Virus record (IMG/VR): IMGVR_UViG_3300043473_000010
Coordinates: 1 to 41,861 of that record
DNA length: 41,861 nucleotides
DNA from: a virus
Taxonomy: Duplodnaviria; Caudoviricetes
Strand: one strand, 5' to 3'
Made by a program: the position numbers and the translations under genes. A model generated the notes under the pieces. The model was given only the letters and a program-made list of their open reading frames with translations, was not told the origin of the DNA and searched no databases. This document shows positions 13,892 through 41,202 of this stretch, piece by piece (the first letter of the stretch is position 1; each line of letters starts with the position of its first letter).

Positions 13892-14338
13892 GTGTACGTC
13901 CTCATTGCCGATGCGGAGCGGGTCGGGGAGTTCTGCTCCAAGTTGATGGGTAACATCCAGTGGGGCGTACATACGGCGATAGGGATAGAAAGGGATGGCG
14001 AGCTGATTGGTGGGGTGGTCTACGATGGCTTCAATGGCAGGAATATCTGGGCGCACATTGCGGGTAAGCCGGGGACACGATGGCTCACTCGTAGTTTTCT
14101 CTACGCCATGTATCACTACCCCTTTGTTCAGCTTGGAGTGGAGCGCATCACCGGGCCTGTGGACTCAACCAACCTGGAAGCCATTCGCCTCGATACGCAT
14201 ATGGGATTCGTACATGAGGCTACTCTACGTGGGGCCTCACCTAATGGTGACCTGCTCTTGTTTGTGATGTGGAAGCAGAATTGTAGATACCTAGGAGACC
14301 GCTATGGGCGGGAAGTCAAAGGCACCGAAGGCACCTGA
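13892..14338 (+). CDS. GNAT-family acetyltransferase
   Basis: YPFVQLGVERITGPV..TNLEAIRL...MGFVHEATLR matches RimJ/RimL-like GNATs found between nozzle and ejection genes. Confidence 0.8.
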   Translation: MYVLIADAERVGEFCSKLMGNIQWGVHTAIGIERDGELIGGVVYDGFNGRNIWAHIAGKPGTRWLTRSFLYAMYHYPFVQLGVERITGPVDSTNLEAIRLDTHMGFVHEATLRGASPNGDLLLFVMWKQNCRYLGDRYGREVKGTEGT

Positions 14339-19184: not shown

Positions 19185-20791
19185 GCCGCGACGCATCAGG
19201 TAACTTCAATCTCCCGGCAGGCAACCCGGTACTCACCAACACGGTGATCGAAAGCCAGTGGGCGAACCCCACGATGGCGGACATTGCGGCGGGCCTGACT
19301 GACAGCCTGTCACGCTCAGGCAAGGGCGGGATGGCCGCGCCACTGGCGATGGGCGGGTACAAGATCACCGCCCTCGCTGCGGCTACAATCGGTACCGATG
19401 CGCCGCAGGCGTTGCAACTCCGGGACGCCACGTTCAACCGGCTCTTCCCCTGTACTTCGGACGCCACCGGCAACAACTATTCCGGCGTGGCCGTACTCAC
19501 AGCCCCGCTTGTCAACGGCTCTACATTCCTGTTCGTAGCCGACAAGACCAACACGGGAGCAATGTCCCTTCAGGTCAACGCCGGTGCGGTGATACCCATC
19601 TTCATGAATGGCGCGGCCATTCCACCGGGTATCATCCTGTCCGGTGCCGTCATCAGCGTGATGTTCCTGGACCTCACGTGGCGGCTGACCAATACGGCGG
19701 GCATCGTCGGTACGGTGAACTCGGTGCAGTCGGACAACCTGCCCGCCATCAGCGTCACCAATGACTTCGCCAATGCGGTTGCGGTCCTCAACATCCACGC
19801 GAACATTTCCAACGGCCTCGCGCAGTTGGACAGCAACGCGAAGATACCCATCGCACAGATGCCGTTCACGGCGCTGCGCTTCGTTGGGTACTGGAACGCG
19901 GGGCCGGGTACACTGCCTCCCGTCGGGGTCAATGGTGATTTCTACACCATCAGTGGCGCGGGCAACCTGACACTCTTCCGCGTCAGCAGCGGAAACAACT
20001 ACACCGCTCAAGTCACGGCGGTGAACGTTGGCGATAACATCGTCTACAACACGATTGGCACCGCCGCTCAGCCGGTGGGATGGTACTTCTCGCCTGCGCC
20101 CGGTACAGTGGTCACGGCAGCGAATGTTACCGTCGTCCCGACGCCGAGCCTGCCCGGTGCGTCCAACGCTCAGGCGTGGTTCAATCAAGCAGACCCCATC
20201 ATTGCCGGGAAGTTGAGCAAGTCTGGCGGCACGATGACGGGGCCAATACTCCAGCCCGCTGCACCGGCCTCCGCGCAGGCGCTCGCGAACAAGCAATACG
20301 TGGACGATACGCTCGCCTCCATACCGGCAGCGGTGAACTCCTTCAACACGCGCACGGGTGCAATAACACTCATATCGGCAGACGTTACTTCCGCACTGGG
20401 CTTCGTACCTGCGAACTCCACTGGGCAGGCTTTCACCGGCCCCGTCAGTGCCACGGCATTCACTTCCCCCGGAACGTACACGGGCAAGGGATATTCGCAG
20501 ACGGCACTGGTCGCGCCCTCCGCTGCCTCGCAGGCGCTGGACTACGGTAACGGGCAGTCGCAGATTCTTACACTTTCTGCCGCGACTGTGTTTACGGCCA
20601 TCAGTAACATCCCCGTGGGCACGGTCTTGCGGCTGACGTTGATTGGCACCAACTTCGCGATCACGTGGCCTGCATCCATCCACTGGCCGCTCGGCGCTGT
20701 GCCGGATCTGACGCTTGGACCGCTCAAGAAGGCCATCGTGGTTATCGAAAACGACGGTACAACGCTGCTCGCCTCTTCGGCTGCGTACTGA
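19181..20791 (+). CDS. Tail fibre/spike protein
   Basis: N-terminal MSRD.SG.F.LPAGNPV...WAN.TM.DIA..LT.SL anchor; GGTMTG, ANKQYVD, VNSFNTRTGAITL fibre motifs. Confidence 0.85.
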   Translation: MSRDASGNFNLPAGNPVLTNTVIESQWANPTMADIAAGLTDSLSRSGKGGMAAPLAMGGYKITALAAATIGTDAPQALQLRDATFNRLFPCTSDATGNNYSGVAVLTAPLVNGSTFLFVADKTNTGAMSLQVNAGAVIPIFMNGAAIPPGIILSGAVISVMFLDLTWRLTNTAGIVGTVNSVQSDNLPAISVTNDFANAVAVLNIHANISNGLAQLDSNAKIPIAQMPFTALRFVGYWNAGPGTLPPVGVNGDFYTISGAGNLTLFRVSSGNNYTAQVTAVNVGDNIVYNTIGTAAQPVGWYFSPAPGTVVTAANVTVVPTPSLPGASNAQAWFNQADPIIAGKLSKSGGTMTGPILQPAAPASAQALANKQYVDDTLASIPAAVNSFNTRTGAITLISADVTSALGFVPANSTGQAFTGPVSATAFTSPGTYTGKGYSQTALVAPSAASQALDYGNGQSQILTLSAATVFTAISNIPVGTVLRLTLIGTNFAITWPASIHWPLGAVPDLTLGPLKKAIVVIENDGTTLLASSAAY

Positions 20792-22374
20792 TGGCAACCC
20801 CCAAAAACTTCCTGCTAGTTCAAGGCGACAATCAAGTCGCCGCACCAGGAACGAACTTTGCTGACGCAGTGTTGTTCCGGGCGTATGACACGACCGGCAC
20901 ACCCATGCCGAACGAGCCGGTGATTTGGGGCACCGCAGTAGCCGAACCAACCGGGGTATTCATTTCCACCGGCACCCGCAACTTCTCCGCCAACACGGAC
21001 GCGAACGGTTATGCGTGGTCCGGTGGCTTCAACGGAGGCGGAAGTAACCTGCGGGCCGGTTCGCAGGTAGGAACGTGGCTAGGGGCTGTTCAGTTCGTAC
21101 GCGATACTACCATCAACGGCATCTGGTCAATGACCAATGGTGGTGCTGACCCAGTGCCGAAGACACTCGCCATCACCAATGCCGGTGGCGCTCGTGCAGC
21201 ACTGAATTCAGCCTATCCGCAGTTGCAGGTGGAGGTCCGGGACCAGAATAATGCCGTACTCCCCGGTGTGGTCGTACAGGCTTCCGTGCCATCTGGTCAC
21301 GGTACGTTCACTGGTGGAGTGCTGACCGCTAATGCGACTACGAATTCACTTGGCGTTGCGAGCTTCCCCACGTTCACGGCAAACAATGTCACGGGGTCGT
21401 TCACCGTTACCGCCAACGTTCCTACTGCTCCGGGCGTAGCTGCCGTCACGACAGCGTGGACTACGGTGGACCCGGCGATACCGACCACCGTTCAGGCCGT
21501 GAGCGGTAACGCACAACAGGCGGCAGTCAGCACATCCTTCTCCAAGGCGCTAAAGGTCAACGTGACCAATGCCCTTGGCAATCCTGTGACAGGTGTATCC
21601 GTTACCTTTGCGGGGCCGGGGTCTGGTGCCTCTTGCACGTTCCCCACTCTGGCGCGGCTTGCCTCCACGGTTGCAGTCACAGATTCGAGCGGTAATGCCA
21701 CCAGTTCCATTCCGGCCGCTAATGCATTGACGGGCACGTACTTTGTTCAGGCGACCGTACCGGGTGCGACGGCAGGACAGTTTCAGCTCACCAACGGGGT
21801 GTCGTTCCAACCGGAAGTTTGCACGACCCTCGCTGCACCAATCGCTGCCTCCAATCAAGGTGGCAACACCAACTCGTGGATTAATGTCAACAATTCGTTC
21901 AACGGTAACTCCACCGGGGCGAATGTCACCACTGCGCTTGCAGAGTCGGCGAAGGTTCTGGTGGTGGCTCCGGCCACGTTAGCTTCATTGGACCCCATAG
22001 CCGATGATGCGAAGATTACCAAGTTCATGTTCGAGTGGGACCAACGAGGCACCCGTGCCGTGGGAGCCACGTACTACGTGACCATGCAGGTGGGACTGTA
22101 CGACACGGCCACCAAACGGGGAAACATTGCTCAGCAGAGCCCCGCAGATTCCTTCACACACCAGACGGCCACCGTCAGTACGTTTTCCAGCCCCACTACT
22201 ATCAGTGGCGCTCAGCTCAAGGCGGGCAACTTCGGTATTGGCTTCAGCGCCAATGGAACAAGCGGCGCGGCGGGCACTCTGTATGTCCGCAACGTGAAGA
22301 TGTCCATCTGCTACCAGAACCCGAACACTCCCCCGGCCACCGTGTCGGTTCCGCTGTTGCTTTGCGAAGTATAG
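20791..22374 (+). CDS. Virion protein with tandem bacterial Ig-like (Big-1/invasin-type) domains
   Basis: TGATG coupling gives start 20791; three repeats of G.nQ.A...F...l.v.v.d..gnp..Gv.V.f...TD..G.A. Confidence 0.75.
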   Translation: MATPKNFLLVQGDNQVAAPGTNFADAVLFRAYDTTGTPMPNEPVIWGTAVAEPTGVFISTGTRNFSANTDANGYAWSGGFNGGGSNLRAGSQVGTWLGAVQFVRDTTINGIWSMTNGGADPVPKTLAITNAGGARAALNSAYPQLQVEVRDQNNAVLPGVVVQASVPSGHGTFTGGVLTANATTNSLGVASFPTFTANNVTGSFTVTANVPTAPGVAAVTTAWTTVDPAIPTTVQAVSGNAQQAAVSTSFSKALKVNVTNALGNPVTGVSVTFAGPGSGASCTFPTLARLASTVAVTDSSGNATSSIPAANALTGTYFVQATVPGATAGQFQLTNGVSFQPEVCTTLAAPIAASNQGGNTNSWINVNNSFNGNSTGANVTTALAESAKVLVVAPATLASLDPIADDAKITKFMFEWDQRGTRAVGATYYVTMQVGLYDTATKRGNIAQQSPADSFTHQTATVSTFSSPTTISGAQLKAGNFGIGFSANGTSGAAGTLYVRNVKMSICYQNPNTPPATVSVPLLLCEV

Positions 22375-23676: not shown

Positions 23677-23880
23677 TTATGGCGACCCGTTTGATGGCTC
23701 TGGCTTGGCTTCCCAGTAGGCACCCGTGGGGCCGCAATGGGGGATTTGCGGGTTTTCCACGTAGGTACGTGTCATGTAGCAGTCCGCAGGGTCCCCCGTC
23801 ACGTTATCAACCAGTTCGGGGTGGCCGCACTGGTTGATTTCCTTGTAGTGCTTGCACTGTTTGCAGATGCGGAGGGCCAT
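23677..23880 (-). CDS. Small Cys-rich hypothetical protein
   Basis: CKQCKH...C.HP...C...R...CGPTG; coupled to the upstream gene. Confidence 0.7.
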   Translation of the reverse strand: MALRICKQCKHYKEINQCGHPELVDNVTGDPADCYMTRTYVENPQIPHCGPTGAYWEAKPEPSNGSP

Positions 23881-24350
23881 TACCTGTCCTGGTTCACGTA
23901 GGCCGGGGTGGCATCACCCTCCGAAACCTTTGCCGCGATGTCTTCGCACTCTATCGCGTTGTGGTGCGCCCACGGCGGCTCAAACTCCTGGCAGTGTATC
24001 TTCGTGCGGCAGCGCCCACAGGTATAGAGGAAGCCTTCCTTGTGAGAACCCTCAAATACGAAGCCGACCCACCCGCTAGGTTTCACGTACTGGAGGAACT
24101 CTGCAAACGTGGGCTGCGGCACCGACTGGCGCACGGGATGTTTCTCTGCAAGCTCAATCATCTTGTCGATAAAGTGCCGCGCTTTGCGTAGGTCGTTCGA
24201 GCCGCCCTTGTCGCGATAGCGCATGATGTACTTGATAGTCTGCGCTTGGAAGTAGTCCCACCCGTGGATGACCACGAGGTTCCAGTGCTGAAACTCTGGC
24301 GGGCACTTCTTGTAGTGCGAACCGTCTTCTTGGTGAGTGTCAACATTCAC
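23880..24350 (-). CDS. DUF3310-like protein with C-terminal Cys/His motif
   Basis: Q..GSHY, IKYIMRYRDKGG..DLRKA..FIDKMIE. Confidence 0.8.
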   Translation of the reverse strand: MNVDTHQEDGSHYKKCPPEFQHWNLVVIHGWDYFQAQTIKYIMRYRDKGGSNDLRKARHFIDKMIELAEKHPVRQSVPQPTFAEFLQYVKPSGWVGFVFEGSHKEGFLYTCGRCRTKIHCQEFEPPWAHHNAIECEDIAAKVSEGDATPAYVNQDR

Positions 24351-25375
24351 TGATCTTCTCCAATGTGCCCGTGGTGAGGCTGACCAAATTCCCGGTCAGC
24401 TTTTTCTTTCAGATACCTCCGCTCCAACCATTCGTAACAGGCGACGCCCCAGTCGCAGCCGGGTATGGCCCCGATACAGCCTAGCGCCGCTTCCCATTCC
24501 CCCGCCTTGTGGAAGCCCCACGCGTCCCATATGCGGCACACGTACTCGGTGAAGTAACTGGTGATAAAGTGGTGGCTTTCCTCCGGGTTGGCTAGGAACA
24601 TCGCCAAGTCCTCATCGAACTCGTCAACAGTGCAGAGCATGGGGAGCGCCCGCATGTTGTTTGTCAGGTAACGGTCATCCGAATGCGGAACGAAGGACAG
24701 CTTTTCGTACTGCTCGTTCAAGTAAACGTGGGCGTTGAAGCTGACCTGGTGATACAGCCCCACGGGCACGCCAACTCTGCGAGCCATGTACTCCTGCAGG
24801 AATGCGAAGTGTACGGCATTGGCCCCGCACATTCCCCAGATGATGTCGTTGCTGCGGTTGGTCACCATCATGTCCAACCTGCCGTCGTTGACCTGAAACA
24901 TGGCGCTCAGGTTGCAGGGGATGTCTTTACGCCCCTCCTCCAGTGTGAGGTCCTTTGCCGGGTCCCACATCGTAACCACTGCTCGCCGCGACGTAGAGTC
25001 TTCTTGGAGCAGCCGCGCCGCAACGGTTAGCTGATCATAATCCCAGTGCTGCCGCCACCGATAGCCGTAGGCACCCTCCAGTATGACCCCGTCATCGCTG
25101 TACTCCTTCATACGGGGCAGAAATTTGGCGAGAAACTCTACGTCCTCCCGCCCGCCAAGCATCCACAGTGCCTCCATAAAGTGGAAGAATGGGTTGGCGT
25201 CGCGCATGGGGTTGAACAGTACCCGCTCCTGCGGATGAGTGTACGTGACGCATACCGGGGCGTTGAGCTTCAGGGCGGGGCCGTTGCGGGTATCGACCTT
25301 GACGCTACTGGTCTTCACACGCCAGAGCATATCGCACAGCGCACCGTTGACATTCCGTGCTATGACTACGTGCAT
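24347..25375 (-). CDS. Thymidylate synthase homolog, probable dUMP hydroxymethylase
   Basis: GAYGYRW, SRRAV, catalytic DIPCN, RSNDIIWG..GAN (Asn indicates dUMP specificity), NAHVY. Confidence 0.85.
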   Translation of the reverse strand: MHVVIARNVNGALCDMLWRVKTSSVKVDTRNGPALKLNAPVCVTYTHPQERVLFNPMRDANPFFHFMEALWMLGGREDVEFLAKFLPRMKEYSDDGVILEGAYGYRWRQHWDYDQLTVAARLLQEDSTSRRAVVTMWDPAKDLTLEEGRKDIPCNLSAMFQVNDGRLDMMVTNRSNDIIWGMCGANAVHFAFLQEYMARRVGVPVGLYHQVSFNAHVYLNEQYEKLSFVPHSDDRYLTNNMRALPMLCTVDEFDEDLAMFLANPEESHHFITSYFTEYVCRIWDAWGFHKAGEWEAALGCIGAIPGCDWGVACYEWLERRYLKEKADREFGQPHHGHIGEDQ

Positions 25376-25396
25376 CGCTTTCTCCTTGTGGTGGGA

Positions 25397-27340
25397 CTAC
25401 GACAGCTTACTGCCCTTCATCGGTGGGTCCGGATTGAGTGATATCTCGGGCCACGGCCCCAGTTTCCTACGAAAGATGGTGGTTTGGCCGGGGCCGGGTG
25501 TTTCTCCTAGGGTGTCATTCCATACGCGCACCTTTTCTAAGCCCGCGGCTTTCAAAGCCGCTGAAATTTGCATACTCCGCTGATGGTTCTTGTGTGAATT
25601 GTCAAGTTGCATGTACGCATAGACGTAGTCTACCGTGACGTAGGCGTAAGTTTCATAGTCCACCTTACTGCCCGCTGTCAGCGACTTGTACCGGGGCAGC
25701 GTACGAAGATCACGGGTGGCCCGCTGCACTGTTTCAGCAAACGGTGAAAGAGTATTCCGCGCTCTGACAACCAACTCCGCCTTGGCACCCGGCATTTCCC
25801 ACCACTCGTAACCGTCCCTGAACATCTGCACCGCTTCCGCAAGTATCTGGTCGCGGTTTTGTTCAATCAGGTCCACTTCCACAAGGTATCCGCAGCGTAC
25901 CGGCCAGAAACGTCGCCCACCCGTTTCATCCGTGAGGTAGGTGTCCTCGTTCGTGGTGCCGACAATCACGCACTGTCGTTTCTGGGTAACGCTGAGCCGA
26001 CCATAGGGTAGGCGAAAGGTATCCTCGGAGGAAGACAGCAGTGATTTAATGGTGGCGTGGTCGGACTTCCGCATGGCCCGTAACTCGTTGATGTCATATA
26101 TCCACGCCCCGGCCATGTTCTGCAGAAAGTCCTTACTGCCCACATCGTGGACAGTGCTTTCCCGGTAGTAATCACCCCCGATTGCGCGTAGCGCACGGCT
26201 CTTCCCGATGCCCTGCCCACCTTCAAGGATCAGCATATTGTCAGCCTTACAGCCGGGGCGCAGCGCTCGGGCCACTAGGGAAACGAGCCAGTTCTTACTC
26301 ACGGCCCGTAGATATTCTTTGTCTTCCGCCGAGTTGCAGTAGTTTTCGAAGAATGTTTCCACCCGCTTTTCACCGTCCCACTTAATATCCTCCAGATACT
26401 CGACCAGAGGGTTACGGCGAAAACGTGGATTTTGGAACACCTTGAGGAGCGCATCTTCTATGGTGCCTCTTTTGAATGATGGTTCCACCTCGTGCTGAAA
26501 CTTGCCCAAGATACGGATGGCGTCTCCGTCTTCCATTGGCTTGTTGTCTATGACGGGCTTCTGCATAAAGGCGTCGTACCACACGTTATCCTTGAACCAG
26601 TCGTGGACTTGCATGATGCGGGCGGCGTTTTCTGCGTTGGGGATTATCCGGTCAAACTGACCCTGTGTTCTAGCCCCGCTGCGGTAGGCAAGGCTCGCCA
26701 CGCCATCCCACAAATCGTGTCCGTTGTGCCGGGGCAGCTTGTCAAATCCGGCACCATTGGTAGCGACTAGCCAGTCATCAAACCCGACCTTATCGCGGCC
26801 CTCGGGCAGTGTCACCACCACTGGAATACGGCCCGCGTCACGCAACGCCAAGCAGAGTTCAGCAAGACCATGCTGTACCTGCGAATTCGTACGATAGTCG
26901 CCATCGAAGATGATCTCAACCGTAGCTCCCTCCGGTATAGCTTCCAGTATGTGCGGGCTGACAGTACGGTGAACCCGCGCATTCTTCGGCCCTTTCCAGT
27001 TATGACAGCCGCCGATACCTATCGCCGTCATCTTAAGGAACTTCCACGCGGCGGCAGCTTTCTTTTCACCCTCTATAATCCAATGCTTCACGCGTTCGTG
27101 GGCACCGCGCCAGTCAGCACCGGGTACGAAGTATGGATAGGGAGCCACCCCCGCAGCCTGAGTATACTTGCTCCCGTCCTCCGCCGGTTCGAACCTGCGG
27201 ATACGGAACATGTGAGGGTGGACTTCCCCAGTGGGTAGGAAGTAGGGGATTCTATATCCGAAATTGCCTTCTAGTGCAACACGCATGTCTTCGGGAACAA
27301 GACCGCTCCGAGCAAGATCGGATACAATCAATTCCATCAT
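25397..27340 (-). CDS. Primase-helicase (DUF3854/Toprim-like primase plus VapE/VirE-like ATPase)
   Basis: IIEGEKKA, GIGG, FDGD, GFDDW; PGCKAD.MLILEGGQGIGKS, FRLPYG, GTTN, DETGGRRFWP. Confidence 0.9.
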   Translation of the reverse strand: MMELIVSDLARSGLVPEDMRVALEGNFGYRIPYFLPTGEVHPHMFRIRRFEPAEDGSKYTQAAGVAPYPYFVPGADWRGAHERVKHWIIEGEKKAAAAWKFLKMTAIGIGGCHNWKGPKNARVHRTVSPHILEAIPEGATVEIIFDGDYRTNSQVQHGLAELCLALRDAGRIPVVVTLPEGRDKVGFDDWLVATNGAGFDKLPRHNGHDLWDGVASLAYRSGARTQGQFDRIIPNAENAARIMQVHDWFKDNVWYDAFMQKPVIDNKPMEDGDAIRILGKFQHEVEPSFKRGTIEDALLKVFQNPRFRRNPLVEYLEDIKWDGEKRVETFFENYCNSAEDKEYLRAVSKNWLVSLVARALRPGCKADNMLILEGGQGIGKSRALRAIGGDYYRESTVHDVGSKDFLQNMAGAWIYDINELRAMRKSDHATIKSLLSSSEDTFRLPYGRLSVTQKRQCVIVGTTNEDTYLTDETGGRRFWPVRCGYLVEVDLIEQNRDQILAEAVQMFRDGYEWWEMPGAKAELVVRARNTLSPFAETVQRATRDLRTLPRYKSLTAGSKVDYETYAYVTVDYVYAYMQLDNSHKNHQRSMQISAALKAAGLEKVRVWNDTLGETPGPGQTTIFRRKLGPWPEISLNPDPPMKGSKLS

Positions 27341-27378
27341 GTGGGGAACTCTTCAGAGGTGGGGTGGCACGGGTGTAA

Positions 27379-27407
27379 AGTTTACGCCCGTGGCCGGTAG
27401 CATACAA
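27379..27407 (-). promoter_or_regulatory. sigma70-like promoter for the primase/TS operon
   Basis: TTGTAT - 17 bp - TAAACT; the -10 lies in a near-perfect palindrome at 27368-27392. Confidence 0.6.
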
Positions 27408-27433
27408 CCCCCAACTCGTTCTAAGACCTTGTT

Positions 27434-28261
27434 TTAATTGCCATTTCTGTAGGACGTCGGAGTGTAGATCTGCTTGGGAGTACCTTCTCCATTCTTAGCC
27501 CGACTCCACTTGTCAAACTCGCAGAGACAGTTCTGCAGATTCTGCGCGTCCAACGGTTTGGGGAGGGACTGGATAACGGGGATAAGCTCCACGCTCAGTT
27601 CTACCAGTGTTTCCCGAAAGAGCTGCGGGGGCCACTTGAACTTCAGTGGTCTGTCCATCACACGGTTCAGCCCCCGTTGGCTTCCCGGCCCCGGAGTACA
27701 CCAAGTCCACCAGTCTTCAGCGTTGGCGAGTACGGGCTGTTGCTTCAGGTCCGCCACCATCTGCCCCGCCATGAATGACCCTACGCCTCGGACCGCTTGG
27801 AACATATTCGCAGCCTCGGATAGTGTTTCCTGGCCCGATAGGTGGACCTCCTCGTGTACCCGCGTCACCAACTCCACGACATATTCCAGCTTGTCCTGTT
27901 TGATACCGTTGGTGCTGACGATGTAGGCGGGGTTGAATACCCGGTTGCCACTGGAGCGCCAGATGTTCAGGTTGGCTAGAACAGCCGCAGGCTCCCACGG
28001 GGAACACGGCCCCAGAGTCTTCAACGTCCGTGGCTCGTTAATGTATCGTGCCAGTGCCACCCGCGCTTCGCAGTGATGAGCATACGGTCCCAACCAGTCA
28101 GCGATGAACTCCGACACGGGGTCCCACTCCCGGTACACGTTGCAGAAGCGATACGTGCGGAGGATGGTATCCGCTGTCCATGGGGGCGGTTCGCCCCGGC
28201 CACGGCGGAGGGCCATTTCCACCCGTTCCTTGATGAAGTAGCTCAGGTCTACGATGTTCAT
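27434..28261 (-). CDS. 5-hydroxymethyluracil DNA kinase (aGPT-Pplase1 family)
   Basis: PWTAD.IL..YRFCNVYRE.D, GVGSFMAGQMVADL, PGPGS.RGLNR, QNCLCEFDK signature motifs. Confidence 0.85.
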   Translation of the reverse strand: MNIVDLSYFIKERVEMALRRGRGEPPPWTADTILRTYRFCNVYREWDPVSEFIADWLGPYAHHCEARVALARYINEPRTLKTLGPCSPWEPAAVLANLNIWRSSGNRVFNPAYIVSTNGIKQDKLEYVVELVTRVHEEVHLSGQETLSEAANMFQAVRGVGSFMAGQMVADLKQQPVLANAEDWWTWCTPGPGSQRGLNRVMDRPLKFKWPPQLFRETLVELSVELIPVIQSLPKPLDAQNLQNCLCEFDKWSRAKNGEGTPKQIYTPTSYRNGN

Positions 28262-29073
28262 GGCTGACGCGGTCCACGGCTGATGCGCGGCAGACCTTCA
28301 GCACGTTCTGCGATGGGGGCCGGGTAGCAGTCCGTCACGAGCTTGCCCCAAGAGATGACTACTTCCTTGCGGGGCTTACCGTCAAACCATCCGGCCTTTG
28401 TTGCTTTCTCCACTAGCCGGGTGTAGTCGGGGTGCCATCTGTTGATCTGCTCGTGGCAGGCGTTGTGATATTCTAGCGTCCGGTAGGTAGAAGCGCCACC
28501 GGGGGACTGACTTTCCTTTTGGTCCTGCACCGTGAGGTACGTGACCCAGTTGGAGTAGCCCATCCGTATCAGCTGGATGGTCATTTCCAGGTCGTCTACC
28601 GGGCAGGTAAACTTCAGGTCATGCTCCTTGATGATATCGGCCCGTAGTCCCCACGCACGGGTGATGCGCCCGTTGAGGACCGTATCCTCCTGATTGTTGG
28701 CGAACAGCCTCGCCCCCACGCCAACATGAGCATACTCCTCCAACGCCGCCGCGACATCCATCAGCGTTTGGTGAAGCTGTGGCCGGGAGGCGGGCAGATA
28801 CTTGCGACTGCCAGGAATGCGGCAGGCCCAGTTTCCCAAGTCGTCGTCCAGCATTAGGACGCTCTTGTCGGGGCTGTTGTTGATGATCCACTGGCGCGTC
28901 GCGCCAATGCGTTCGGCCGGACAGGCTACGGCAGTATATCCGGCAGCTTGAAAGCCCGTAACCTCTTCAGGTGGGCAGACAAGTGTGATGGGAAATACGG
29001 ATACCGGGGCCAGAATATCTGCCGTTTTCTGAAGCCGTGGTCCGCGACCTTTGGTGGGAATGTAGATGTGCAT
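28258..29073 (-). CDS. GT-A fold glycosyltransferase (TAGT/GREB1/JGT-like)
   Basis: IYIPTKGR, RQWI, MLDDD (DxD), DDLE...QL...GY.N, QSPGG.S.YR, HP..T.LV.K. Confidence 0.8.
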   Translation of the reverse strand: MHIYIPTKGRGPRLQKTADILAPVSVFPITLVCPPEEVTGFQAAGYTAVACPAERIGATRQWIINNSPDKSVLMLDDDLGNWACRIPGSRKYLPASRPQLHQTLMDVAAALEEYAHVGVGARLFANNQEDTVLNGRITRAWGLRADIIKEHDLKFTCPVDDLEMTIQLIRMGYSNWVTYLTVQDQKESQSPGGASTYRTLEYHNACHEQINRWHPDYTRLVEKATKAGWFDGKPRKEVVISWGKLVTDCYPAPIAERAEGLPRISRGPRQP

Positions 29074-29142: not shown

Positions 29143-29808
29143 TTACGCTGCGGGGGTCGCTGCCGGGGCCGGTTCGTCGGCCTTGATAAACCCGTGGGCC
29201 AGATCGTACGCAAAGTCCGGACGCGTGAGACCTTCGGCAATCAGCTCGGTGAACGACTTGCCGACGGCGTACTTCGCGTACCGGGCGAACGCCGCGCAGC
29301 CTGCCCGCTTCGGGTTCGGGGCCACGTAGTTCAGCCGTTGGTCCAGCGTGTACGGTACGACGGCGGGCTTCGCCTTGCGCTTCTTCACCGGGGCCGGGAT
29401 GGGGTTGCCTTCGGCATCCAGCTTCGGCGGCTCTGCGGGCTTCGCTTCGCCAGTGGCGACCTTCTTGCGGGACTTCTTGGCGGGCGCTGCGGGGGCTGCG
29501 GTTCCGTCGGTGTTCACTGGGGCTTGTGCTTCCTGTGTCATTGTATACTCCGTTTGTGAGATGATATCCAGCTTGGCGCGGGCACGGTCGCTGATCTTCT
29601 TGTGACCAGCGATCCACACACGGGCAGCGTGAGCCGGGTTTTGGTTGGACAACACGAACTTCTTGGCGAACTGCTCCGACTTCATGGTGCAAACATCAAT
29701 GGTCGGACCTGCCATTGGATCGACGTAGGATACCCGGCCACCGAGCCGGTCTGTGACGATCACGAACTTCTTGTCTTCAACTCCACGGTGAACTTCAGCT
29801 TGTTGCAT
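29143..29808 (-). CDS. Hypothetical protein with Lys/Pro/Ala linker and C-terminal NPKR...DLAHGFI domain
   Basis: Own promoter and AGGAGG RBS; domain shared with 40765..41202. Confidence 0.8.
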   Translation of the reverse strand: MQQAEVHRGVEDKKFVIVTDRLGGRVSYVDPMAGPTIDVCTMKSEQFAKKFVLSNQNPAHAARVWIAGHKKISDRARAKLDIISQTEYTMTQEAQAPVNTDGTAAPAAPAKKSRKKVATGEAKPAEPPKLDAEGNPIPAPVKKRKAKPAVVPYTLDQRLNYVAPNPKRAGCAAFARYAKYAVGKSFTELIAEGLTRPDFAYDLAHGFIKADEPAPAATPAA

Positions 29809-31975: not shown

Positions 31976-32640
31976 GGGCCTCCCCGGTTGCGCGAGTAGG
32001 AGCACCATTTGCAGTGAGCACCGGGCCGTGCCTTGAACTCTGCATCCATAGCCATTTCGTTGGCGATGTTCTCCCACCGCTTCAGCACATGCTGACTCGC
32101 AGCCTTGTTCATGGTGCGTTGGAGCTTGGCCCCCGGCCCAATGTCAAGATACCAATTTTCAGTCTTGGATACCTTCGCCTCCGGGTAGATAAGGAACGAC
32201 ACGGCGGCGTAGAGGTCCAACTGATTGGCGTGGGTGGCGCTCACCTTGCCGGTCTTGTAGTCAATCGTTTGGACCGTGTACTCCGGCACATCGTAATACT
32301 GGACGTCAAACACCATCCGCGCCCATGCGTCCTTCGCGAAGAAGTCTGTCGGTTGCCAGAGCGTGTTGAAGGCCACCTGTAGCTCCAGCTTGGGGCTCTT
32401 TTCCCGCAGCGCCATCAACTGTGGGCGGAACAACTCTAACTGAGGCGCACCGGGGGCAGGTTCGGGCAACTCCAGATGCCCCGGCCCGACGAAGTTCTCC
32501 AGAACGCTGTGCCAGTAGGTTCCGCGCTCGGCCGCTGCCCCCGGTGGATCGGGTATCTTGTCGATCACCTTGAACTTCACCTTTTGCGGGCACTGCTGAT
32601 ATGCGCTGAGGCGACTGTACGACCATTGCGTTATTCCCAT
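31960..32640 (-). CDS. PD-(D/E)XK (RecB/Cas4-like) exonuclease
   Basis: WSYSRL..Y.QCP, RGT..H, IDYKTG, QL.LY, C-terminal C.WC...C. Confidence 0.88.
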   Translation of the reverse strand: MGITQWSYSRLSAYQQCPQKVKFKVIDKIPDPPGAAAERGTYWHSVLENFVGPGHLELPEPAPGAPQLELFRPQLMALREKSPKLELQVAFNTLWQPTDFFAKDAWARMVFDVQYYDVPEYTVQTIDYKTGKVSATHANQLDLYAAVSFLIYPEAKVSKTENWYLDIGPGAKLQRTMNKAASQHVLKRWENIANEMAMDAEFKARPGAHCKWCSYSRNRGGPCSSG

Positions 32641-32987
32641 CTTTCTCTCCAAAGTCGTTGGGCTATCTCTTCCGTATAGCAGCTACGGAGTCTGACTAAT
32701 GACATCTGCTTACGCCGCTCATGCGAGCCATTATTCGCCCATGCGGATTGAAGATTACAGCGATGCTGTCCACGCGCCACACGATCACGCGCATTGTCTT
32801 TATCGGTGCCGCAATACAGATGCTCCGGGTTCACACACGCCTTGTTATCACATCTGTGCAGGATGTGCGCTCCCTGTGGAATGGGGCCGTAGAAGTTCGT
32901 GTAGGCTTCGCGGTGCGCGTACCCTCGTGCGTGAGTGTACCCGTACCCATGCTTGCCGATCTTCATGTCGGTAATGATGCAAGTCAT
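32631..32987 (-). CDS. HNH endonuclease
   Basis: AHR.AY...GPIP....LHRCDNKACVNPEHL..GT..DN. Confidence 0.9.
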   Translation of the reverse strand: MTCIITDMKIGKHGYGYTHARGYAHREAYTNFYGPIPQGAHILHRCDNKACVNPEHLYCGTDKDNARDRVARGQHRCNLQSAWANNGSHERRKQMSLVRLRSCYTEEIAQRLWRERWE

Positions 32988-36022: not shown

Positions 36023-36427
36023 TTAGAGTTTGGAGATAGATACGGAATACTGCTCGAAGTGCTCCACACCGGGAATTTCTTCCCCGGCTTCCCACCGCTC
36101 CGCAATGGCCGTGACAGTCAACCGTGCGTGCATCAACTCCCACGCGCCATTAGCGACGATGTACTCGCGGATCTTTCCCCAGTCGCCTGCCGTGGGGACG
36201 TCCTTAGTATTCAGGCGTACCATGTGCTTCGTGGACGCCAGTGCGCCGGACTTGGCCTCGCGCATACGCGCGATCAGCTCGTCCTTGTAAACGTCTTCGC
36301 TTTCCTTAAACAGGACCGACTGGCGGTCCAAAGCAAGCCGCTTTTCCCGCGTAATCTGGTAGACCTCTACCAGTGTCACATCGGGCAGCGCCTTTGCTTC
36401 TTCTATCAACTTCGCATCTTTCGACAT
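36023..36427 (-). CDS. Conserved phage hypothetical protein
   Basis: Start MSKDAK at 36427 behind GAGGAG; [13 protein letters not shown] motif. Confidence 0.75.
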
Positions 36428-36743
36428 GGAACTCCTCTGTGGTGGGAAACGTAAGTGCTGAACTTCTACGGCCCTTGCGCTGCGCGTCACGTATATTCTG
36501 TAGAGCCGTCCCCAGAAACAAGTGGGCCGGGTTGCAGCACAGACGATTATCGCAGGTGTGGCAGACATACATACCCGTGGGGATGACACCGTTTGTCAAC
36601 GCCCACGCTGTTCTGTGGGCGCTAAACGATTTGGACCCATAGTTGAATCGCCCATACCCGCGACCGTTCTGTCTTCCAAGCCAAGGCCAACATTCGGTGT
36701 CATTGCCTGAGCTGACCTTGGACCAGAGAAGGGCGGGTTGCAT
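36306..36743 (-). CDS. HNH endonuclease
   Basis: [35 protein letters not shown]. Confidence 0.9.
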
Positions 36744-37263: not shown

Positions 37264-37653
37264 TTAGACTACGTTTCGTACTCTTGAATCTTTATTTTCA
37301 GCTAGCGCCTTTCGCTGCGCTCGCCGTACCGCATTGTGACATTCTCTATGACGATGATTGTAACGCCCAACAGTGATCACTTCACTGGCGGGGCCATACT
37401 TCTTGCAATACTCGCACTTCAACCAATTTGGGTTGCCGCAAGCATTCATAGCATCCGTCCGTTGGTGAATGAGCTTGTGGTATCGTTGGTCGGGACACAC
37501 CACAAGATTAGATGGGTCGTTGTTTTTCACATTCCCATCCACATGGTGGACTAGCTCGGGATGCTTTAGTCTGCGCCCCAAGCGAGTCTCCACCATAATG
37601 TCGCTCACGTTCCTTGTTTCGCCGTTATGCCTGCGGCGCAAGTGCTCGGACAT
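37264..37653 (-). CDS. HNH endonuclease
   Basis: E.RLGR.L...ELVHHVDG...NN.PSNL......H...H; start reassigned to ATG 37653. Confidence 0.85.
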   Translation of the reverse strand: MSEHLRRRHNGETRNVSDIMVETRLGRRLKHPELVHHVDGNVKNNDPSNLVVCPDQRYHKLIHQRTDAMNACGNPNWLKCEYCKKYGPASEVITVGRYNHRHRECHNAVRRAQRKALAENKDSRVRNVV

Positions 37654-38491
37654 TCGCCACATCCAGCATCGCATTCCACAAGCCGACGTTAATGCGAACT
37701 GTTTCGTCAACTCGTTTAACCGGAGCAGATACGTAGACGCGGCCACTGGCGTTCACGCCCTGTACTCCGCCTATCGTCACCAACCATCTTTGAGCGTGAT
37801 TGTAAACGCTCCAGGCTGACAAGTTATAATCCTCCTTCAGCCACGGGCTCATCGCAAGGTCCGCCGGGATGACGCTGGAACCGTGCGGCCACCGGACCGC
37901 AATGGCGCGGGCGAAGTAGGCGTGCATCTGTGCCTCCGTAATGACGGCATCCTTGAGCCTCTCGGCGATGCGCATCTTCTCGGGCAGCACTCGCATAAAC
38001 TCCGTGCTCAGCTGCATCGCAGTCACGCCTTGGGGTCCGGCTTGCCGCATGGTGTGATGGGCCTTCACGCTGCCCATGATCTCGCCCCACACCAGACCAT
38101 TCGTACAGACATGGCGGAATGCGCCGTCAAAGTATTTCCAGCTCGCCGTGCCGTCGTGGGCGTTCATAATGATGGCCTCCGGCACAAACTCGTCACCACG
38201 AGCATCTTGGTGGCGCATCCGGATGAAGTGGCGGGCATAGGCCCAACGGTTCATGTCACGAACAAATTTCTGGCCTGCGGCGGTGACCTGCCATCCTTCC
38301 TGCCGCATGGCTTCGATCATCTGTATCGTACTCACGAACTGGTACGTGTGCTTCGTACGCTCCGGGTGCGGAGCTTCTGCGAAGATGGCCGGGGCCACTG
38401 CCTCCAAATCGGCATTGGTGGCGTTCGTAAAGTTCTTGATCTGCAACGCGCCTTGGGAGGGCGCGTAGCGAACTGTGCCTGCGATGTTCAT
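37625..38491 (-). CDS. DUF932/DUF945 family protein
   Basis: APAIFA..PH, Y.FVST, EGW, H.IR.R, NAHDG, FRHVCTNGL. Confidence 0.85.
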   Translation of the reverse strand: MNIAGTVRYAPSQGALQIKNFTNATNADLEAVAPAIFAEAPHPERTKHTYQFVSTIQMIEAMRQEGWQVTAAGQKFVRDMNRWAYARHFIRMRHQDARGDEFVPEAIIMNAHDGTASWKYFDGAFRHVCTNGLVWGEIMGSVKAHHTMRQAGPQGVTAMQLSTEFMRVLPEKMRIAERLKDAVITEAQMHAYFARAIAVRWPHGSSVIPADLAMSPWLKEDYNLSAWSVYNHAQRWLVTIGGVQGVNASGRVYVSAPVKRVDETVRINVGLWNAMLDVANVRALAPQA

Positions 38492-40764: not shown

Positions 40765-41202
40765 TTACGCCTTGGCGGTTTCGGTGGTCGCCGGGGCCGG
40801 GGCCGTGGCAACCGGGTTCAGCGTAATAAACCCGTGGGCCAAATCCCACGCAATGTTGGCCGTCAGCAAGGCAAATTTTCCCTTGTGCCCGGCCTTGGCG
40901 GAATTTTCCATGCACGCGGCCAAGGTCTGGCCGGGCACGTAAAATCCAAACGCGGTATGCGCCGCACAGCCCGCGCGTTTCGGGTTGGGCACAACGGTCG
41001 CCACGGTCTGTTGCAGGTGGAAATTCGCCCGCGTAACGTAGCGCGGCGCTTTCGCCGGGGCCACGGCATTCGCCGCAACCTGCGCGGGCGTAATCGCCGT
41101 GGTTTTGTTTTCGGCCGGGGCCGGGGCCGCTTGCGCGGGCGTGGTCACAACGGGCGTGCTAGGCGCTTGCGCGGCCTTTTTCGTGCTGTTACGCTTTGCC
41201 AT
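40765..41202 (-). CDS. First gene of the - arm; Ala/Pro/Thr-rich protein with NPKR...WDLAHGFI domain
   Basis: GGAG RBS, own promoter and terminator; paralogous to the C-terminus of 29143..29808. Confidence 0.8.
   Translation of the reverse strand: MAKRNSTKKAAQAPSTPVVTTPAQAAPAPAENKTTAITPAQVAANAVAPAKAPRYVTRANFHLQQTVATVVPNPKRAGCAAHTAFGFYVPGQTLAACMENSAKAGHKGKFALLTANIAWDLAHGFITLNPVATAPAPATTETAKA

Follow-up and report, generated by a model that had tools for sequence, protein, structure and literature searches.

A phage gene cassette pairing a putative dUMP hydroxymethylase with a TAGT-family glycosyltransferase suggests kinase-free, base J-like glycosylation of thymine

Here we examine a putative thymine hypermodification cassette in a 41,861-bp phage genome (IMG/VR record IMGVR_UViG_3300043473_000010), a complete record with direct terminal repeats that was analysed over its full length and is referred to below as the window. 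Structural genes occupy the plus strand and replication genes the minus strand, and the cassette lies within the replication arm, transcribed in the order TAGT-family glycosyltransferase (GT), aGPT-Pplase clade 1 protein (Pplase1), primase-helicase, thymidylate synthase (TS) homolog and DUF3310 protein (Table 1). The GT and Pplase1 genes share an ATGA overlap at 28258-28261, and the TS and DUF3310 genes overlap too (GTGA). An initial annotation, made from the letters of the sequence, had described this layout around the primase, including the ATGA overlap, and it proved correct, the DUF3310 match falling under the Pfam cut-off. The genes of the cassette are genuine and undisrupted and evolve under purifying selection, with dN/dS values of 0.07-0.17 in all five genes relative to the nearest relative, locus L005, which shares 84-92% protein identity for the three cassette enzymes. 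The primase-helicase gene interrupts the cassette both here and in L005; in more distant relatives (e.g. L007, L009-L018) Pplase1 adjoins TS with no primase-helicase gene between them.

Table 1. Genes of the cassette and its upstream neighbour, in order of transcription
Feature	Position	Strand	Basis
TAGT-family GT-A glycosyltransferase, 271 aa, predicted 5hmU-DNA glycosyltransferase	28258..29073	-	PF20691 E 5.3e-9; PHROG 842 E 8e-30
aGPT-Pplase clade 1 (PF18723) HhH-fold protein, 275 aa	27434..28261	-	PF18723 E 6.7e-37
Primase-helicase (DUF3854 + VapE-like), inside the cassette, non-modification gene	25397..27340	-	Pfam/PHROG
dUMP hydroxymethylase-type thymidylate synthase homolog, 342 aa	24347..25375	-	PF00303 E 5e-22
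DUF3310 protein, 156 aa, candidate nucleotide-level (hmdUMP) kinase	23880..24350	-	DUF3310 E 1.2e-4, under Pfam cut-off
Lys/Ala/Pro-rich protein	29143..29808	-	Recurring upstream neighbour, seen with the cassette in many loci

The window was scanned as 56 open reading frames (ORFs) with Pfam and PHROGs, and our own profiles were run against 843 six-frame segments. Related loci were compared in a census comprising the best 80 of 557 confirmed Pplase1 loci and anchored on Pplase1 and TS; an alignment-based, GT-anchored scan gave no loci, so the census under-represents GT loci that lack Pplase1. For L045 and L049 the census labels come from Pfam.

The TS homolog carries RSNDIIWGMCGAN at residues 174-186, which sets N186 at the position of the dUMP-specifying ThyA N177, as the initial annotation had recognised; also present are D151 (ThyA L143 position), C154 and the stretch R174-S-N-D177. 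According to PMC13326640, Asn at ThyA 177 specifies deoxyuridine monophosphate (dUMP), an acidic residue at ThyA 143 marks hydroxymethylases and D169N marks 5-hydroxylases. All tested dUMP-hydroxymethylase residues are present, namely N186, D151, D177 (ThyA Asp169 kept) and the catalytic C154, and Asp occupies the ThyA-143 position in 99 of the 103 TS homologs of the loci. The protein is much nearer to M6 gp58 (E 4e-85) and SPO1 gp29 (38% identity over 207 aa) than to ThyA, every NCBIfam ThyA model scores it far under cut-off, and TS was found in the fetched DNA of 66 of the 80 Pplase1 loci. Residues, similarity and co-occurrence thus uphold the reading as a 5-hydroxymethyluracil (5hmU, or hmU) synthase, and this enzyme is likely a dUMP hydroxymethylase that supplies 5hmU to the phage DNA. 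If it instead made ordinary dTMP or acted on dCMP, any sugar would be carried by cytosine or be missing altogether. The best PDB sequence match is the CMP hydroxymethylase MilA, and Microbacterium phage Zayuliv (L119:3388-8033) pairs an Asp-type (dCMP-like) TS with a distant Pplase1 alongside two TAGTs, which could be a form of the cassette in cultured phages that glycosylates cytosine; however, the three diagnostic residues and the marked proximity to the M6 and SPO1 enzymes rather than ThyA leave this alternative highly improbable.

Neither an HD nucleotidase nor a dCMP deaminase was found in the window with Pfam or our own profiles, so thymine replacement may be partial; an HD gene accompanies 15 of the 24 TS-bearing GT loci. 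Apparent "DCD" matches in the six-frame scan traced back to an impure seed and were HNH genes. T7 gp1.7, a protein annotated as a nucleotide kinase, has DUF3310 as its C-terminal domain. The DUF3310 protein of the window matches PHROG 236 ("nucleotide kinase") at E 4e-13, a profile comparison with T7 gp1.7 gave a weak match (E 9e-4), and a BLAST comparison of the protein with T7 gp1.7 was insignificant, the link being the shared Pfam domain alone. It turns up in 58 of the 66 Pplase1 loci that have a TS, and we list it as a candidate hmdUMP kinase.

The GT matches PF20691 (TAGT) at 36.7 bits against a cut-off of 27.5, and its structural model has a GT-A fold (predicted local distance difference test, pLDDT, 92) whose closest matches are viral TAGT proteins (template-modelling scores of 0.7-0.85) and whose best PDB match is TarP; PDB sequence searches with the GT and with Pplase1 returned nothing meaningful. 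Phage DNA GT-As that have been tested resemble the trypanosome glucosyltransferase JGT and share an R...DDD...EDY/F motif (bioRxiv 10.1101/2023.12.21.572611); of this motif the protein has R10 and the DDD at D76-D78, and its last element, at D160-D161, reads DDL. The window yielded no gene for sugar synthesis, so that a host nucleoside diphosphate (NDP)-sugar is presumably the donor. TarP is a teichoic-acid GT, and about 65% of the GT contigs in the survey of Pyle lacked a base-modification neighbour, as might be expected if the enzyme acted on a virion protein or the host surface and the DNA held hmU and T only. However, TarP is also the top PDB match of proven DNA GTs (bioRxiv 10.1101/2023.12.21.572611), TAGT/PHROG 842 is a DNA-GT family, and the gene belongs to a replication operon, overlaps Pplase1 and replaces a DNA kinase, all of which render a non-DNA target quite improbable.

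Pplase1 had been annotated as a 5hmU DNA kinase, its phosphorylation of 5hmU being taken as established, and this part of the initial annotation fails. The protein matches PF18723 strongly (127.8 bits, cut-off 25) and M6 gp55 (E 6e-32), not the kinase gp54; it has no Walker A motif, and its model is all-helical (pLDDT 94.6). The M6 proteins gp54, gp51 and gp55 fall into PF18748, PF18724 (Pplase2) and PF18723, respectively. The tested 5-hmdU DNA kinases, M6 gp54 among them, are all P-loop proteins, and in lysate drop-outs the glycine adduct still formed without gp55 (PMC8989533). Fold, lack of Walker A and these drop-outs together rule out Pplase1 as the kinase, and SP10 gp186, a fusion of PF18748 and PF18723 (L125:4053-5966), is the most likely origin of the wording "kinase, helical domain" in Pfam. 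The P-loop 5-HMUDK family PF18748 is absent from the genome in a search that detected M6 gp54 as positive control (E 8e-18), and our own profile, built from 33 kinases, reached a best E of 3.5 in the six-frame segments. Among plausible modification-region genes Walker A occurs in the primase-helicase only, save for one chance-looking match in the Lys-rich ORF at 29143. The absences reported initially were confirmed, with no ADDT/Pplase2, pyridoxal phosphate (PLP), radical SAM or TET/JBP match by Pfam among the 56 ORFs and no PF18724 match in the whole genome. Best six-frame E values were 0.79 for Pplase2, 3.9 for HD, 0.09 for PLP, 1.7 for radical SAM and 0.69 for Nmad5. Our Pplase2 profile overlooks divergent ADDTs that Pfam catches (L069, L086, L102).

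Because Pplase1 is not the kinase, a route in which hmU is first phosphorylated by Pplase1 and then receives a sugar on its phosphate from the GT is left without an enzyme. Such a glycosyl-phospho-hmU has the Pfam label alone in its favour, along with the sugar-bearing thymines of SP-15-like phages, which are sugar-phosphate-linked through a different linker and by another route (PMC12686479); with no P-loop or kinase fold in Pplase1, and PF18748 in neither this genome nor 36 GT records, we give it next to no credence. Of the sugar- or sugar-phosphate-modified thymine first proposed, it is the predicted base J-like glycosylation that stands, strengthened by the co-occurrence data that follow.

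The partners of Pplase1 in the 80 loci are a GT-A (24), a GT-B (1), a kinase (29) or neither (26), and never a GT and a kinase together. After dereplication at 70% identity, TS-bearing loci comprise 0 with both, 19 with GT, 24 with kinase and 9 with neither (Fisher P 1e-7), and at 55% identity 0, 11, 12 and 5 (P 3e-4), P values that are inflated by relatedness among loci. Whole-record searches found PF18748 in 0 of 36 GT records, many of them fragments, against 9 of 12 kinase controls, and in 0 of the 8 GT records that are at least 90% complete; PF18724 turned up in none of 13 GT records and in all 3 controls. Pplase2 occurs in at least 10 of the 29 kinase loci, absences having been rechecked with PF18724. 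In a quick maximum-likelihood tree of Pplase1 (IQ-TREE, 78 rows) GT and kinase partners interleave, the GT label requiring 20 changes of which at least 7 are forced by strong branches, and the five rows nearest to the window's Pplase1 are kinase loci. In L042, L043, L054 and L056 the kinase lies directly upstream of Pplase1, in the slot that the GT fills in the window. The simplest reading is that TS and Pplase1 (with DUF3310) form a core, while the group placed on the hmU hydroxyl, phosphate or sugar, is a swappable module. Since GT and kinase never co-occur and have swapped repeatedly, often in the same slot, the TAGT enzyme probably glycosylates 5hmU directly, giving a base J-like 5-(glycosyloxymethyl)uracil with no phospho-sugar. 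That the sugar is glucose specifically is a tentative suggestion. Record MW202897 carries TS and TAGT without Pplase1, so the GT is not dependent on Pplase1.

Slot-sharing without co-occurrence, the translational coupling of GT to Pplase1 and the existence of kinase and Pplase1 phages without Pplase2 (L056, complete; L048, 92%; SP10) could also mean that GT and kinase are interchangeable activators. Sugar and phosphate alike would then give hmU a leaving group that Pplase1 exchanges for hydride or a nucleophile, and the glycoside would be an intermediate on the way to T or some other adduct. However, a sugar leaves far less readily than phosphate, MW202897 has GT and TS with no Pplase1, and no Pplase1 residue distinguishes GT from kinase loci (largest frequency difference 0.44; 53 GT, 33 kinase). 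Related GT-As also yield stable end products on 5-hydroxymethylcytosine (hmC; bioRxiv 10.1101/2023.12.21.572611, PMC8256090), and on balance we consider an activating role for the GT unlikely.

A role for Pplase1 downstream of hmU supply is suggested by its residues and its distribution. Fifteen residues, among them C247, E248, K251, D171 and D31, do not vary among the Pplase1 proteins of these 53 GT and 33 kinase loci. When six Pplase2 proteins are added to the alignment, the invariant positions shrink to D31, D171 and C247, and the glycine:DNA transferase PUGT uses Asp24, Asp175 and Cys247 (PMC11472151). Pplase2 forms an exocyclic methylene, which borohydride reduces to T (PMC8989533). Virions of M6, ViI, PhiW-14 and SP10 contain T and no hmdU, and the same source treats the conversion of hmU to T before packaging as a given, its available text naming no enzyme for it (PMC8989533); SH-Ab 15599 has 77% dT (PMC13458397). 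All five phages encode Pplase1, and SPO1, a phage that keeps hmU, does not. These observations make the protein the natural candidate for this orphan step, an assignment to which we lend somewhat less than even confidence. Alternatively, Pplase1 may be a transferase or a consumer of "activated" hmU, because Pplase2 was not detected in SP10, L056 or L048. Minimal cassettes of kinase, Pplase1 and TS, in records that lack Pplase2, are found at L056:9418-12108, L048:9414-11313 and L042:9436-12155, and in cassettes of this type phospho-hmU may be the end product, or Pplase1 the acting enzyme.

The pathway that we propose would begin with conversion of dUMP to hmdUMP by the TS homolog, as its residues and its similarity to the M6 and SPO1 enzymes suggest. 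The DUF3310 protein or host kinases would then make hmdUTP, to be incorporated by the phage PolA, possibly with partial substitution. The GT-A would move a sugar from a host NDP-sugar onto hmU in DNA, as JGT does, with glucose the simplest guess in a genome that showed no gene for sugar synthesis. Finally, Cys247 of Pplase1 might attack C6 of unglycosylated hmU, the exocyclic methylene being reduced to yield thymine, a step that we put forward with the same reserve as the assignment of Pplase1 itself. In its fullest form, in which these phages make base J itself (beta-glucosyl-hmU) free of TET, by a dUMP hydroxymethylase and a JGT-like transferase, and Pplase1 reduces leftover hmU to T without phosphorylation, the proposal is doubtful.

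A number of observations weigh against this pathway, the Zayuliv cassette described above among them. D160 of the GT stands where tested phage DNA GT-As have Glu, the DD form being present in 6 of 24 aligned rows, and the donor may differ from that of the tested ED-type enzymes. A Foldseek search with the Pplase1 model gave nothing at E 0.001 or better, and the tied top structure matches, PUGT (Z 9.9, root-mean-square deviation 4.3, 217 residues) and HhH glycosylases, are middling. By motif and sequence alignment C247 would be the counterpart of the catalytic Cys of Pplase2/PUGT, aligning with that of the Pplase2 E-T-x-x-C motif, and the metal-ligand positions E/T read Q243/N244 in Pplase1; a profile-profile comparison of Pplase1 with Pplase2 was insignificant (E 0.21), and PF18724 has no match in Pplase1. 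No reductant-binding domain is apparent in Pplase1, and SPO1 is a single-genome control. SP10 makes glutamyl-thymine (PMC5889632) although Pplase2 was not detected in it, and the L056 and L048 records have kinase and Pplase1 with Pplase2 absent. TS was not in the fetched DNA of 12 of the 80 Pplase1 loci. A literature search that left most subscription journals uncovered turned up no published measurement of glycosyl-hmU from a phage, no assignment of Pplase1 and no chemical test of the trio of TS, TAGT and Pplase1 in any phage; nothing of the kind was found in the available text of PMC5889632, PMC8256090, PMC13229309, PMC13697223 and PMC12686479.

Other gene combinations accompany Pplase1 in other loci. 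A radical SAM/SPASM gene lies beside Pplase1 and TS in the kinase-less loci L049 (7676-13337), L044, L045, L081 and L112, and a GT-B is present in the kinase-less L049, L036 (7174-9986) and L006 (797-1942), with an epimerase in L049 and an FkbM methyltransferase in L036. An unannotated protein of ~318 aa fills the GT/kinase slot upstream of Pplase1 in L050:9039-9995, L057:9036-9992, L058, L071 and L077, and is possibly a third kind of hmU-modifying enzyme. At L086:14752-19094 and L102:15477-20143 a divergent amino-acid:DNA transferase adjoins myo-inositol-1-phosphate synthase, with a DSP phosphatase in L086, making an inositol-thymine modification possible. Ralstonia phage RSL1 (L117:1-8057) encodes two TAGTs, Pplase1 and a dUMP hydroxymethylase together with nucleotidyltransferases, an APS kinase and a sulfotransferase-like gene, a cluster whose possible product is a sulfated sugar on thymine.

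In the window itself, the Lys/Ala/Pro-rich protein upstream of the cassette has a paralog at 40765-41202 (minus strand), the two sharing a C-terminal domain; the upstream protein has no Pfam or PHROG match, and the atlas places it only in unnamed viral clusters. Three HNH endonuclease genes lie in the replication arm (32631-32987, 36306-36743 and 37264-37746, minus strand), a GNAT acetyltransferase gene within the virion module (13892-14338, plus strand) and an Ig-repeat protein gene after the tail genes (20665-22374, plus strand).

If correct, the pathway would provide a prokaryotic-virus counterpart of base J, so far treated as eukaryotic, and an hmU-specific glycosyltransferase usable to label or map 5hmU; reduction of hmU by Pplase1, if true, would explain why hypermodifying phages package T and not hmU. 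The cassette separates Pplase1 from the kinase and makes the gap from hmU to T before packaging directly testable. Iyer et al. reportedly defined these families in 2013 and may have predicted this combination. The initial annotation implied that the trio is rare; it is in fact widespread and has already been noted in print, in pelagiphages, where it is described by annotation with no product proposed or measured in the available text (PMC9599517).

Among known systems, the closest comparison is kinase-dependent thymidine hypermodification as in M6, PaMx11, ViI, PhiW-14, SP10 and SH-Ab 15599 (PMC5889632, PMC8989533, PMC13458397), with which the window shares a gp58-type dUMP hydroxymethylase, a gp55-ortholog Pplase1 and a gp61-ortholog DUF3310 protein beside replication genes. 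Unlike those phages, it has a TAGT glycosyltransferase in place of the P-loop 5-HMUDK, Pplase2/AADT, PLP, radical SAM and FAD tailoring enzymes, HD nucleotidase and dCMP deaminase, and both the kinase and the transferase of the 5-PmdU route of M6 and ViI are absent from the complete genome. Kinetoplastid base J synthesis (JBP1/2 and JGT) offers a parallel in that an enzyme of a GT-A family reported to resemble JGT is predicted to O-glycosylate 5hmU directly in DNA; in contrast to base J, hmU would be made on the nucleotide by a TS homolog rather than by a TET/JBP dioxygenase (no TET_JBP match in the 56 ORFs), and the role is likely anti-restriction and not regulatory. With 5mC-TET and GT-A cytosine glycosylation (PMC8256090; bioRxiv 10.1101/2023.12.21.572611) and the T2/T6 beta-glucosyl-HMC-alpha-glucosyltransferase family the cassette has in common the GT-A family, the R and DDD elements of the motif and TarP as top PDB match, whereas its predicted acceptor is hmU and not hmC, it has no methyltransferase or TET gene, and the ED motif shows an E-to-D change. 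Its gene content is that of the HTVC023P-type pelagiphages (TS, aG/PT-PPlase1 and beta-glucosyl-HMC-alpha-glucosyltransferase; PMC9599517) and of the cultured phages phiJL001, LuckyBarnes and RSL1, which carry TS, TAGT and Pplase1 without a kinase, although the window differs from these clusters in having one GT and a primase gene that splits the cassette. By their defining genes the cassette belongs to neither the base J nor the M6-type system; in its proposed workings it resembles base J synthesis attached to an hmU supply of the M6 type.

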